Below, in pieces: positions 1,825-26,322 of a DNA stretch of 50,260 nt. The translations under genes and the position numbers were made by a program. The notes below the pieces were generated by a model. It searched no databases, was not told the origin of the DNA, and saw nothing but the letters and a program-made list of their open reading frames with translations. How positions within the stretch are numbered: position 1 is the first letter of the stretch; every line of letters begins with the position of its first letter. The stretch comes from a virus (Duplodnaviria > Heunggongvirae > Uroviricota > Caudoviricetes): positions 1 through 50,260 of the IMG/VR virus record IMGVR_UViG_2728369607_000007, one strand, 5' to 3'.

Positions 1825-1864
1825 CGGCAACTTTCTTAATCACATCTTTCGACGAGAAAATCCC

Positions 1865-2110
1865 ATGTCAGAAATTACATCCCTGGTCACTGCTGAAGCA
1901 GTGAAGGAAGTCCTGCGCTCTGAAGAAGTCCGGAGCGCACTGAAACAGAAACTTCGCCATAACCTGGAAGCGCGTCTTGATGCAGAAGTGGATGCCATTC
2001 TGGATGAACTGCTGGGCGCACCGGCAGCTCCGGAGCCGGAAGGCATCGCGGGTGAGGGGAGTGCTTCAGATAGCGGTGACCCCACACCTGACAGCGACAT
2101 GATGATGTAA
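1865..2110 (+). CDS. Hypothetical acidic protein (81 aa)
   Basis: Internal ATG of ORF 1691..2110; acidic C-terminus; sits between esterase and holin. Confidence 0.4.
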
Positions 2111-2187
2111 GCATTCGTCAGGGACCATCGGTGTGTGCCGGTGGTCTTTTTTATTGTTGTGAGCTTCCGGATTGCGGGAGACGGGGT

Positions 2188-2403
2188 ATGTACCAGATGG
2201 AAAAAATCACAACAGGTGTGTCATACACCACGTCAGCGGTGGGAACGGGCTACTGGTTCCTGCAGTTGCTGGACAGGGTTTCCCCGTCTCAGTGGGCGGC
2301 AATAGGCGTGCTGGGGAGTCTGCTGTTTGGGCTGCTGACATATCTGACGAACCTGTATTTCAAGATTAAAGAAGACCGTCGTAAGGCGGCGCGGGGAGAG
2401 TAG
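2188..2403 (+). CDS. S: Phage holin (S21/Stx-phage type, class II), with dual-start motif M-Y-Q-M
   Basis: Protein [26 protein letters not shown]...[15 protein letters not shown] matches lambdoid S21-like holins; RBS GGGAG upstream; followed by lysis genes. Confidence 0.85.
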
Positions 2404-2406
2404 ACG

Positions 2407-3198
2407 ATGAATAAACAATACGAACTGGTTGTTAAAGGGATAAATATTTACCCGGATAAGATTACTGTTACTGTGGCGCTGGAAACTGGTGGGTATACGT
2501 CACTGTTGTTGCCAAATGTGGTGATTGATCTTGATCGTGTTGAAGGTGCCCCGCTGGAGTTTTACGAAGCTGAGGCGAAAAAGAAGGCGAAGCAGTTTTT
2601 CATGGATATTGCTGCCGGGTTATGTGAAGGGAACGAACCGTTGCCGGAAAAGCGCCTCTGTTCAGAAGAGCGGTATACCATACAAATTAACAATGCATAT
2701 AACACGATACAGTCAGAAAAAGATGATATCGAATCACGCATTGAAAAACTGGAGAACAGCGTCGTTGAACTGAATAAAAAACTGTCGGTGCAGATCCCTT
2801 CCGAAGGTGAAAAAAAACGCCGTGATGAGCAGTTCGCGGCGTTTTACGATTATTGCCGGAAAGTGATGAGCAGAAATCTCGCAGAGTGTTTCCGTATTCA
2901 AAAAAACAGAGAGCGCTCTGCAAATAGTGAGATTCTGGATAATTTTTTAAAGGGGACGCATCTCGCCAGTGATTGTTTCATTGCTCATTCTTTTGGTGGC
3001 TTTCATGAGGCCATCAAACATGATGTTGAGAGAAGTCCAGGTATCCTCTGTTCCATTCCCGTAAGCATCGAAATAGACACAAATACGATAACCGGTGAAC
3101 TCGTTACCGCCGGAGTCGGTATATTCCGTCATGAGGGGAACGATGCCAAAGGTTCCTTTACAAAAATCGGGCCGTTCTTTCTGAAGGTAGAGCGATAG
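2407..3198 (+). CDS. Hypothetical cargo protein (263 aa) with central coiled-coil segment, inserted between holin and endolysin
   Basis: ATG 4 nt after holin stop with RBS GGAGAG; AT-rich; no family recognised; 3-prime 252 nt overlap the convergent ORF below. Confidence 0.5.
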   Translation: MNKQYELVVKGINIYPDKITVTVALETGGYTSLLLPNVVIDLDRVEGAPLEFYEAEAKKKAKQFFMDIAAGLCEGNEPLPEKRLCSEERYTIQINNAYNTIQSEKDDIESRIEKLENSVVELNKKLSVQIPSEGEKKRRDEQFAAFYDYCRKVMSRNLAECFRIQKNRERSANSEILDNFLKGTHLASDCFIAHSFGGFHEAIKHDVERSPGILCSIPVSIEIDTNTITGELVTAGVGIFRHEGNDAKGSFTKIGPFFLKVER

Positions 3199-3579
3199 TT
3201 TGTTAAGTACCCATCCGACAGCTCGCTCATTTTGGTTTATTTTCGTATCGCGAAACAAAAATTCGAAGCGGCCAGATGACGCATGGGTGCAACCAAATAC
3301 CGGGGCGTATTCATCAACCTTTGGTGTTCCTGAAAACATGCAGTCCGTGCTCTCGAATGCAGATGAATTGCTGTTGATCCACTTAACAAAAGAAAAAAAG
3401 GTCTGAATCGCTTGTCTGTCTGAATATTCAACAAAATCCTCAAGGTGTGTCTCGATCAGTTCCGGGTGTTTACGAAAGTCATAATATTGACCGGGACGAT
3501 ATTTATGAGTGGTTGTTTTATCCCATGGTTGTGCTCTGCGTCCCTGTAAACGGAGGTCTGCCGCTGGATAGATAAGCAT
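2947..3579 (-). CDS. Hypothetical cargo protein (210 aa), antisense to the late operon
   Basis: Internal ATG at 3579 preceded by GGAG RBS (7-nt spacing); diverse composition; no family recognised. Confidence 0.5.
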   Translation of the reverse strand: MLIYPAADLRLQGRRAQPWDKTTTHKYRPGQYYDFRKHPELIETHLEDFVEYSDRQAIQTFFSFVKWINSNSSAFESTDCMFSGTPKVDEYAPVFGCTHASSGRFEFLFRDTKINQNERAVGWVLNKLSLYLQKERPDFCKGTFGIVPLMTEYTDSGGNEFTGYRICVYFDAYGNGTEDTWTSLNIMFDGLMKATKRMSNETITGEMRPL

Positions 3580-23800: not shown

Positions 23801-24570
23801 TTCCGTATGTTGCCGGTATTGGTGCGGGGATTGAGGATGCTGATGGCCAGACGCTGAGCAATATTCTGCTGCAGGCGGACCGTATCGCGATGATTACCCC
23901 GGAGAACGGCAACACCACGCCGCTGTTTGTGGCACAGGGGAATCAGCTGTTCATGAACGACGTGTTCCTGAAGCGACTGTTTGCGGTGAGTATCACGTCA
24001 TCCGGCAATCCCCCGACGTTCTCCCTGACGCCGGAGGGCAGGCTGACGGCCCGCAATGCGGACATCAGCGGACATATCAGTGCGAACTCGGGCACGCTGA
24101 ATAATGTCGTGATAGCGGAGAACTGCACGATAAATGGCACGCTGAAAGCGGAGAACATTATTGGTGATCTGGTGAAATGTGCCGGGGTGGCTTTTCCGGT
24201 GGATGGTAGTCACCTTGCGAACGGTACACGAACGCTGACGGTGTATGACGATCACAGCTTTGACCGGCAGATTATAATCCCGCCGATAATCTATGTCGGG
24301 TCAAAACAGGAATCCCGCACCAGTAATGACATCTGGACAGAGTGCTTCCTGCATGTTGATCAGAACGGACGCCGGATTTATTCAGGCAGGTCAGTGGAAG
24401 AGCCGGGAGTTTTCAGCGGGATCATCGATATGCCAGCTGGCGGTGGTCATATCACCCTGACTTTTACCGTGAGCTCACGGCGTCAGAATAACAGTTGGGG
24501 CAGTTCACGAATCAGTAACCTTCAGGCGATAGTGGTGAAGAAAAACAGCGCGGGGATCAGTATCCGCTGA
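20884..24570 (+). CDS. J: Tail tip/host-specificity protein J
   Basis: Very strong similarity to lambda gpJ from N-terminus ([19 protein letters not shown]) to C-terminus; GTG 20884 matches lambda J N-terminus (ORF-track start 20833 is TTG). Confidence 0.9.
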
Positions 24571-24768
24571 ACATCGCGCCCCGGGATTGCCGGAAGGAGA
24601 CAAAAACCGTACAGTATGCGCGGGTGCCTTTGGCTGATGGCCGGAGGGAACACCTGAAGGCCGGATGTGAAAAGGCCCCGGACAAAACATTCATGTTTAA
24701 CCCGAGGCCTGACCATTCATCCTAAGCAAGTGAAAGGTTAGCGCCTCTCCGTAAAAGGAGCAAGCGTT

Positions 24769-24909
24769 ATGTCGCAAAAACCGTTAAAAACCACCGTGAT
24801 TTGTATCACGGTAGTGCTCATTATCTGGATCACCCACAGTTCACTGTGCGAGTTCCGGTTCCGGATAGCGGGCGCGGAGATTGCGGCGTTCTTACAGTGT
24901 AAGCGGTAA
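24769..24909 (+). CDS. Hok/Gef-family type I toxin (46 aa)
   Basis: MSQKPLKTTVICITVVLIIWITHSSLCEFRFRIAGAEIAAFLQCKR fits Hok-family pattern (TM helix, SLCE.R.R, E.AAF); RBS AAAAGGAG; ~200-nt structured leader; below ORF-track cutoff. Confidence 0.6.
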   Translation: MSQKPLKTTVICITVVLIIWITHSSLCEFRFRIAGAEIAAFLQCKR

Positions 24910-25006
24910 GAAACCGTGGCGGGGGAGTGTACCTTCCCCGCCGACCGGTTGCTGAGGGTGATCAGCCGGATGGCACCTTTTTAACATCAATAAATCACAA
25001 ATTTTA

Positions 25007-25040
25007 CCGCAGGCCGGGAAACCGGTCCTGCGGTTTTTTT
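25007..25040 (+). terminator. Rho-independent terminator downstream of hok-like gene
   Basis: CCGCAGG-N13-CCTGCGG followed by TTTTTTT. Confidence 0.7.
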
Positions 25041-25053
25041 ATGGAGGAAATCC

Positions 25054-26322
25054 ATGGCAGTCAGAATATCGGGTGTGCTGAAGGACGGGGCCGGTAAGCC
25101 GGTACCGGGATGCACGATAGAGCTGAAAGCGCGACGCACAACGGAGACGGTGATTGTCACCACGGTGGCGTATGGTCAGCCGGGGGAAACCGGCAGTTAC
25201 AGTATGGATGTTGAGCCGGGTCTGTACCGGGTGACGCTGAACACGGAAGGGTACGCGCCGTCATATGTGGGTGACATTCTGGTGAAGGCGGAGTCTGCAC
25301 CGGGAACGCTGAATAAATTTCTGATGGACCAGGAGGACGCACAGTATTACCCGAAAGCCCTTGCAGAGCTGGAAGCGGTGGCCGCGGAAATCCTGAAACG
25401 TGCGGAAGCGTCAGCGGCGAGTGCAGAGGAAGCGAAGAAACGGGCAGAGAATGCGCGGGGACCGAAGGGGGATAAGGGAGACACCGGGCCACAGGGTATT
25501 CCCGGGCCAAAAGGCGATACCGGCGAGCGTGGGCCAAAGGGTGAGCGTGGTGAGGCAGGCCCACAGGGGGTACAGGGGCCACGGGGTGAAACCGGACCCG
25601 TGGGACCGCAAGGAGAGGCGGGTATTCAGGGGCCTGCTGGTCCTGCGGGCCCGCGAGGTGAAACCGGAGCCAGAGGCGAAAAAGGAGAGCCGGGAGATCC
25701 CGGAGGACCTCCGGGACCAAAAGGTGACACTGGCCCCAGAGGGGAGCCGGGGCCTCAGGGCCCGGCAGGTCCGAGGGGACCCGCCGGAGAGAGAGGGCCG
25801 CAAGGATTGCAGGGTGTGGCAGGGGAGAGAGGCGATACAGGTCCGGCTGGTCCACAGGGTATACCTGGACCTCCGGGGCCAACAGGTAGCGTCGGTCCTA
25901 AGGGGGAAAAAGGCGAGCCTGGTGATCGAGGTCCACAGGGTGCTACCGGCCCCAGAGGACCACAAGGGGAAAAAGGGGATAAAGGTGACCCCGGCCCGGC
26001 AGGCCCTGCCGGTGAGCGGGGGCCGAAAGGTGATACCGGGCCGACGGGCCCCGCAGGGAAGGATGGCGCAGATTCACAGGCGAACAGAGTGCGTATCAGC
26101 GAGAAAACAGAAGTCACCTCCAGTACAGTCGTTTTCCCCTCTTTTTATGGCGGTGCGCAGGGGGAAAATGCAGCCCCTGATGGCGCTGTGATTCTGAATA
26201 TCAGGACGGCTCCGGTATCACTGACGAACGGCAATTTAGGGGCAGCCTGTGTCACCGCTGTCACTTACGGCTTCCTTCAGGTTCATGATGGCAGCCAGTG
26301 GGTTACGGTGGAACATGAATAA
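25054..26322 (+). CDS. Side tail fibre protein with collagen-like Gly-X-Y repeat region
   Basis: ~200 aa of uninterrupted G-X-Y triplets ([16 protein letters not shown]…), conserved tail-fibre N-terminal domain; follows J. Confidence 0.8.

Follow-up and report, generated by a model that had tools for sequence, protein, structure and literature searches.

The gap between the J homologue and the side tail fibre gene stf of a lambdoid prophage harbors a cassette of ~450 nt that is probably a hok/Sok-type type I toxin-antitoxin moron, equipped with its own promoters, a refolding toxin mRNA and control by the antisense RNA Sok. The cassette is located in the 50,260-nucleotide stretch of DNA analyzed here at its full length (IMG/VR record IMGVR_UViG_2728369607_000007, positions 1 to 50,260), hereafter referred to as the window. 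Both the kind of system and its protein are already known, and the finding is correct but ordinary, because the exact toxin peptide has already been catalogued and reported toxic. The additions made here are modest: the delimitation of the predicted hok mRNA and Sok RNA and of the tac/fbi and sokT elements, the absence of a mok frame, and a hypervariable segment for Sok recognition.

The window derives from an STEC-type E. coli chromosome, and its bases 1 to ~27,100 constitute the late region of a lambdoid prophage, a stretch sharing 96% identity with phage 1720a-02 and with the tail modules of Stx phages. The prophage is followed by ORFs matching potB, potA and pepT in size and order, and a near-identical RefSeq genome has potB/potA/pepT flanking this end of the prophage. 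The stop codon of the J homologue ends at position 24570, and stf (positions 25054–26322, + strand; PHROG 366, with collagen-like repeats) starts with the ATG at 25054, leaving a J-to-stf gap of 483 nt. The range 24571–25040, which an earlier note on this DNA had assigned to a toxin locus, agrees with these landmarks, since it runs from the J stop to the T-run of a terminator at 25040 and amounts to nearly the whole intergenic region. The same note had stated that lambda carries lom at this place, and lambda lom does sit between J and orf-401. The likeness to lom consists in the shared J/side-tail-fibre slot and in an accessory character, dispensable for virion structure; there is no sequence or functional relationship, Lom being an outer-membrane protein, whereas the slot is occupied here by a toxin/antisense RNA cassette.

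The cassette is oriented in the sense direction within the late operon and ends in an intrinsic terminator (positions 25006–25040, + strand) consisting of a 12-bp stem, a GAAA loop and 7 T, whose end lies 14 nt 5' of the stf ATG. A consensus scan located the stem-loop and 7 T at 25015–25040, and reading by eye extended the structure to 25006–25040; the clean terminator described previously is therefore confirmed by both. Terminators found at the same place in relatives are non-homologous. The stf protein shows a run of collagen-like Gly-X-Y repeats (approximately residues 135–330) and matches PHROG 1806 ('collagen like minor tail') in addition to tail fibre families, and its gene measures 1269 nt here versus 1704 nt in the otherwise near-identical RefSeq prophage. 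Elsewhere in the window, within a second mobile element located after potBA/pepT and an integrase-sized ORF, adjacent Rfam matches to isrK (66 bits) and to C4 antisense RNA (77.6 bits), both above the gathering score, were observed at positions 36183–36368 (+ strand).

The hok coding sequence (positions 24769–24909, + strand; RefSeq WP_000078853.1) encodes a 46-aa peptide, MSQKPLKTTVICITVVLIIWITHSSLCEFRFRIAGAEIAAFLQCKR, which contains the SLCEFRFR and EIAAF motifs named in the earlier note as a Hok signature. The peptide matches the Pfam HOK_GEF family (PF01848) over residues 10–44 with 43.5 bits, the gathering cutoff being 22 (E 2.4e-11), and PHROG 251 ('MokW-like host killing') over its full length (E 3.4e-21). 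Its scores in two narrower NCBIfam groups, the HokA equivalog NF007290 (38.2 bits, cutoff 89) and the Hok subfamily NF007279 (37 bits, cutoff 73), remained below the cutoffs. Judged by its sequence, the peptide is a Hok-family member that stands outside both of these groups. A strongly hydrophobic segment spanning residues 8–22 (mean Kyte-Doolittle 2.5) and preceded by K4 and K7 corresponds to the single transmembrane helix expected. The seven positions conserved in more than 80% of the 1264 peptides of a recent Hok catalogue (M1, C16, T18, L30, C31, E32 and E41; bioRxiv 10.1101/2025.08.07.668861) are all retained, being M1, C12, T14, L26, C27, E28 and E37 in the alignment with Hok R1. Furthermore, the hok ORF is under purifying selection, with a median dN/dS of 0.27 and values below 1 in 278 of 278 pairs, and the 46-codon frame is intact in nearly all related loci. 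The ribosome-binding site AAGGAG (positions 24755–24760, + strand) is located 8 nt 5' of the hok ATG, which confirms the site named in the earlier note. A spurious similarity to Hok, which had been considered as a ground for refutation, was rejected on the basis of the Pfam score relative to its cutoff, the PHROG 251 match, the alignment with Hok R1, and the alignment of the leader with those of hokW and R1. Chance was likewise dismissed, in view of the Pfam score, the match to the Rfam hok-leader model (E 8e-10) and the mRNA fold (z = -8.6). The sequence thus supports the assignment of the locus to the Hok/Gef-family type I toxin loci.

In RefSeq, WP_000078853.1 is annotated as 'Hok/Gef family protein' and lies between gpJ and a tail fibre gene. 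Escalera-Maurer et al. (bioRxiv 10.1101/2025.08.07.668861) catalogued 32,532 hok loci and reported that hok is enriched in prophages; Table S2 of their preprint lists construct LRP163, which carries homolog 79_1563 of the 60%-identity cluster 79, a cluster catalogued as high-abundance. The coding sequence of 79_1563 is base-for-base identical to positions 24769–24909, and the encoded peptide is identical too. In that study 42 of the 45 tested homologs were toxic, and 79_1563 is not among the three named as non-toxic, so that the literature in effect provides the outcome of the overexpression assay that had been proposed as a check of the toxin. Relatives from cluster 72 (the L050 and L006 types) were also tested for toxicity there. 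The catalogue deliberately left mok, Sok and mRNA structure aside, and the J-to-stf position of 79_1563 is not described in it. A literature search for a hok gene described at the J-to-stf position found none, and in a preprint dealing with Pas sRNAs the mention is confined to Rfam Sok matches near PasA.

To delimit the hok mRNA, we compared 86 related loci, of which 79 were taken from viral contigs, 5 from genomes and 2 from annotated records; they comprise 52 unique mRNA-length sequences. Viral contigs were used as the main source because a scan of genome contigs gave 5 loci only. Conservation begins sharply at GCGGGTGCC (24620) and stops at GGCACC (24977), and these edges, apparent in 16–26 relatives, define a conserved hok mRNA module extending from tac to fbi (~24620–24979, + strand). 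Outside the module, the flanks found in one context bear no relationship to those in another, the P2-like phage 500465-2 being an example, and the module length ranges from 337 to 366 nt among the 52 unique loci. The full hok transcript presumably extends to the terminator at 25040. The transcribed leader is predicted to span positions 24620–24768 (~149 nt), and the ~200-nt GC-rich leader of the earlier note did not hold up: the 198-nt gap has a GC content of 55% versus 53% for the whole window, which makes 'GC-rich' an overstatement.

A putative hok promoter (positions 24587–24615, + strand), read from the sequence, comprises a -35 hexamer TTGCCG (24587–24592), a 17-nt spacer and a -10 hexamer TACAGT (24610–24615); relatives and hokW show TAGAAT, TAGATT or TAAATT at the -10 position. 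A simple sigma-70 scan yielded no promoter above threshold on either strand, and the hexamers of this promoter and of the putative Sok promoter match the consensus at 3–4 of 6 positions each. Both promoters are accordingly put forward as putative, on homology and conservation and not on consensus strength.

The 360-nt hok RNA is predicted to fold with a minimum free energy of -165.2 kcal/mol (z -8.56), with its two ends paired. A tac-like 5' element (positions 24622–24638, + strand), consisting of GGGUGCC (24622–28) and the extension GGCUGAU (24632–38), pairs with an fbi-like 3' element (positions 24961–24978, + strand) formed by AUCAGCC and GGCACCU, the GGCACC of which is conserved inside an otherwise variable 3' UTR. 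In a test set of 26 sequences with mutual identities below 97%, 97.6% of the cells of the 11 tac/fbi pairs were paired, versus 86.1% in shuffles (0 of 500 reached the native value), and slid-partner controls gave 28–44%. Compensatory changes were found at 4 of 4 pairs of the extension helix. The end pairing is the tac/fbi lock of the R1 paradigm. A stable hairpin in the 3' UTR (positions 24912–24950, + strand), recovered as an RNAalifold helix with compensatory changes at 5 pairs, is likely, by analogy with R1, to act as a stop for 3' exonucleolytic trimming.

Alignment shows the leader to be homologous to those of the hok mRNAs from R1 and hokW. The Rfam search that had been proposed for Sok/hok leader elements returned RF01794 on the hok-sense strand over the full model (positions 24622–24780, + strand; E 8.3e-10), although the score of 51.1 bits falls under the gathering score of 59. 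Bona fide loci are matched on the hok-sense strand and over the same extent as well, with 113.5 bits for hokW/sokW and 87.2 bits for an R1-type plasmid. Since the hok-sense strand is matched where sokW is annotated, RF01794 models the hok leader; therefore, the orientation found here is the expected one, and the strand called by RF01794 is not that of the antitoxin. The family is named 'sok antitoxin', yet where sokW is annotated it spans from tac to the hok start codon on the hok-sense strand (as noticed with loci L089, L003 and L001 and the window). Members of the 46-aa clade score 51–52 bits, just under the gathering score, and are therefore missed by default annotation.

On the opposite strand, a cis-encoded Sok gene is predicted that has a promoter and a terminator of its own and whose RNA is complementary to the hok leader. 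Its ends were set by homology with the annotated sokW of VT2-Sakai, which yields a predicted RNA of ~58 nt (from ~24727 to ~24670, − strand) with a ~19-nt single-stranded 5' tail and a long hairpin (24674–24709) followed by a short terminator U-run (UUUU); the predicted 3' end follows GGGGCCUUUU near 24670. The putative Sok promoter (positions 24735–24763, − strand) comprises a -35 hexamer TTGCTC (24763–24758), a 17-nt spacer and a -10 hexamer TAACCT (24740–24735). This -10 hexamer is identical to, and positionally homologous with, the annotated sokW -10, and no part of the leader is better conserved than the block that holds it, AGGTTAGCGCC (identity 0.97). Mutation of the sokW promoter has been reported to abolish antitoxin activity (PMC8621323). 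The earlier note had expected an overlapping mok frame and an antisense Sok RNA without being able to delimit either; a Sok-like antisense gene could now be delimited by sokW homology, whereas the overlapping mok frame is absent here.

The leader also contains a sokT-like target hairpin (positions 24704–24747, + strand), with a GAGGC...GCCUC closing stem, a variable inner stem and a loop carrying a YUNR motif (CUAA). The hairpin forms in 24 of 24 distinct alleles, with predicted energies of -15.5 to -22 kcal/mol, and inspection placed the YUNR tetranucleotide on the 5' side of the loop in every listed allele. Chimeras with swapped arms fold less well than the native combinations (p 2e-4), a result that is supportive only, because the sequences are related. 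In the predicted fold of a 3'-truncated mRNA the sokT hairpin is present and the 5' end re-pairs with AAAGGCCCC (24671–79). This predicted refolding, which is a thermodynamic prediction only, matches the activation logic of R1.

The Sok 5' tail and the sokT 5' arm and loop together form a hypervariable recognition segment (positions 24708–24729, both strands). It is the least conserved part of the leader (identity 0.50–0.56), and the region between GAGGC and GCCUC occurs as 24 distinct alleles. Among groups of contigs from one genome, 5 of 7 were observed to contain different recognition alleles. Tandem arrangements were also encountered: contig IMGVR_UViG_2757320580_000004 (locus L040, positions 1860–3208) carries three hok/Sok cassettes with a period of ~495 nt, which all differ in their Sok-recognition allele and, slightly, in their Hok, and loci L042 and L049 contain two tandem cassettes each.

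In the window, the hok SD is not traversed by any ORF that starts with ATG, GTG or TTG. The mok remnant (positions 24693–24725, + strand) consists of an ATG and 10 codons ending at a TAA (24723–25), 44 nt upstream of the hok ATG. In three relatives (L009, L011 and L026), whose Hok is 98–100% identical and whose recognition segment differs from that of the window copy, this ATG is the start of a 69-codon ORF that runs across hok. A mok-type ORF is present in only 14 of the 61 listed relatives, from three different start positions, and leader ORFs across the clade vary in start, frame and end, several alleles having none at all. We considered whether the 10-codon ORF at 24693 is a conserved leader peptide and rejected this, since relatives have ACG, CTG or TTG in place of its start codon and show no conservation of the peptide. 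A minimal ATG TGA ORF was also noticed at positions 24665–24670 (+ strand), at the 3' edge of the Sok-complementary region, where relatives read ATG TGG, which in some of them opens a 61–79-codon ORF across hok.

The hok SD is predicted to be sequestered in a local hairpin (positions 24738–24769, + strand), in which the anti-SD CUCC (24747–50) pairs with GGAG (24757–60). The mean probability over 20 alleles of the SD being unpaired was 0.00 in the full-length, 0.07 in the truncated and 0.00 in the Sok-bound mRNA, and in none of these states did the predicted pairing of the SD fall below 90%. A mok-independent hairpin-swap model, according to which the SD is released by truncation and sequestered again by Sok binding, was set aside: the direction was right in 18 of 20 alleles, but the effect was tiny and gave the model no real support.

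In R1, premature mok stops located upstream of hok abolish toxicity. The window copy carries such a stop, the TAA at 24723–25; native hok might therefore be translationally silent. The cassette would then be a relic: lacking mok, it would never yield Hok from its native mRNA, and only recent descent and hitch-hiking with the tail genes would maintain it. This explanation draws on the termination of the frame from ATG 24693 after 10 codons, versus 69 codons in L009, L011 and L026, on the suppression of toxicity by mok stops in R1, on the sequestration of the SD in all predicted states, and on the existence of decayed relatives, two of which (L037 and L039) lack the hok start codon, while in a third (L043) the ORF is cut to 13 codons. 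However, no other allele of its clade is as common as the TAA allele, which is found with 99% identity or more in 61 complete genomes, most alleles of the clade lack mok and yet retain an intact 46-codon ORF with a dN/dS of ~0.27, and the regulatory RNA elements are conserved with compensatory changes. A silent relic is thus, in our estimation, quite unlikely. Because the TAA allele is so common and so nearly identical among genomes, and because the hok ORF is intact and under purifying selection, we favor a live system in which hok translation is independent of full-length mok.

As no mok frame extends across the hok SD, coupling would be either mok-independent or mediated by a short leader ORF. 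An alternative leader ORF (positions 24667–24741, + strand) of 24 codons, with a GTG start and in the hok frame, ends at a TAG inside the 5' arm of the SD hairpin and is a speculative candidate for a mok substitute or coupling ORF in this allele only. Control could still be canonical and mok-like if translation of a leader ORF with a non-obvious start unwound the SD hairpin, the ORF from GTG 24667 to the TAG at 24741 being one candidate. The ORF has an AAGG 6 nt upstream of its start, it begins at the Sok-complementary edge and finishes at the base of the SD hairpin, and in R1 translation up to the hok SD suffices. Nevertheless, the GTG 24667 ORF is present in some alleles and absent from others, the leader ORFs of the various alleles differ in start, frame and end where they exist, and the putative SD lies in a paired region in the full-length fold as well as in the truncated one. 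We consequently hold mok-like coupling of this kind to be unlikely, and a live system that does without full-length mok remains the favored reading.

The hok/mok/sok (parB) system of R1 resembles the cassette in its toxin family, its tac/fbi end pairing, its target hairpin and its SD hairpin, as well as in having a short antisense RNA with a single-stranded 5' tail and a terminator hairpin, transcribed from a promoter between the target region and the hok SD. It differs in its protein (33% identity; 52 aa versus 46 aa here), in having a mok that overlaps hok, in its plasmid rather than prophage-chromosomal location, and in its RF01794 score (87 bits for the R1 type versus 51 bits here). The hokW-sokW system of the Stx2 prophage Sp5/933W, by experiment a toxin-antitoxin system of type I (PMC8621323), is likewise prophage-borne, has TAACCT at the homologous place and shares the conserved leader blocks. 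In contrast, HokW has 51 aa, belongs to another, HokD-like cluster and is encoded outside the late operon; an annotated mokW is in frame with hokW, and RF01794 scores 113 bits. Neutralisation of Hok by Sok, dependence on RNase III and post-segregational killing have been shown for R1 and for hokW-sokW (PMC8621323).

In VT2-Sakai (L089, positions 544–756), mokW starts 57 nt upstream of hokW and uses the same stop codon; therefore, it is in frame and specifies an N-terminally extended HokW, not an out-of-frame overlap. This is unlike R1 mok, an out-of-frame overlapping gene, with the mok and hok starts 58 nt apart. An in-frame ATG is likewise found 57 nt upstream of hok in an R1-type IncFII plasmid (L003, positions 444–659). 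HokB of E. coli K-12, in which C46 mediates dimerisation and pore formation, resembles the peptide studied here in having a Cys near the C terminus (C44 here). It belongs to a different cluster, and its Y31 is recoded by RNA editing, whereas the corresponding C27 is encoded directly here. A Cys at the C44-equivalent position occurs in 34% of catalogue peptides (bioRxiv 10.1101/2025.08.07.668861).

With regard to its distribution, 102 complete E. coli genomes match at least 80% of a 701-nt query comprising the J end, hok and the stf start, and the leader is present in 188 of 5426 complete E. coli genomes, being chromosomal in every case. The cassette is also found in other contexts, such as the P2-like phage 500465-2, where it has a regulator gene as its neighbor. 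Two Firmicutes-labelled cassettes, from a Planococcaceae MAG (UBA3378, L004) and from Vagococcus sp. WN89Y (L005), encode a Hok identical to that of phage 500465-2 and are probably the result of contamination or mis-binning.

We propose the following mechanism for the cassette. A weak promoter would give rise to a hok mRNA of ~360–420 nt, which would be untranslatable owing to the pairing of the 5' tac with the 3' fbi element, together with the local anti-SD hairpin. Slow 3' trimming would strip fbi, whereupon the 5' end would re-pair with AAAGGCCCC and sokT would form. The short antisense Sok, transcribed from a promoter overlapping the hok SD region, would bind with its single-stranded 5' tail to the sokT loop and 5' arm, leading to cleavage or decay of the duplex and keeping Hok off. 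When Sok synthesis stops, Hok would be made as a 46-aa single-pass inner-membrane peptide and would damage the membrane. Prophage addiction or maintenance, phage exclusion and help with lysis are possible roles, which are not mutually exclusive.

The location of the cassette bears on the last of these roles. Given the sense orientation and the terminator 14 nt before stf, late antiterminated transcription must traverse the cassette and would oppose Sok. Lysis could even be the primary function: Q-antiterminated late read-through would swamp Sok and hinder its synthesis, late-made Hok would speed lysis, and toxin-antitoxin behavior in the lysogen would be secondary. The sense orientation between J (ending at 24570) and stf (starting at 25054) fits this idea, as does a terminator so close to stf that stf expression needs read-through; moreover, hokW-sokW raises the release of Sp5 following mitomycin C treatment, and sokW RNA is lost (PMC8621323). 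On the other hand, hokW lies outside the late operon in its phage, and the same cassette occurs in non-late contexts (the P2-like phage, by a regulator gene) and in tandem triplets. A primary role in lysis therefore appears very unlikely to us, although a contribution to lysis like that of hokW is plausible by analogy for the Sok-controlled moron that we prefer.

A broader proposal, which we advance tentatively and consider unlikely as a whole, is that the 46-aa MSQK...AAFLQCK Hok clade (clusters 72 and 79) has dispensed with mok, so that Sok would act without blocking the translation of a leader peptide. Sok control could then operate through duplex-triggered decay, or through the return of the sokT 3' arm to the SD-sequestering hairpin. 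According to this proposal, the Sok tail and sokT would form a module that sets specificity, evolves fast and keeps co-resident prophage copies insulated from each other, and late read-through in the J-to-stf slot would override Sok, with Hok serving as a holin-like accessory.

The discovery value of the locus is small, as the gene is present in RefSeq and in PHROG 251 and its exact peptide has been catalogued and tested. The Rfam gathering threshold misses the RNA half of the clade, and pipelines therefore report a toxin without an antitoxin. Furthermore, the near-identical cassettes with and without full-length mok constitute a natural test of the need for mok coupling in the hok family. [quoted passage not shown]
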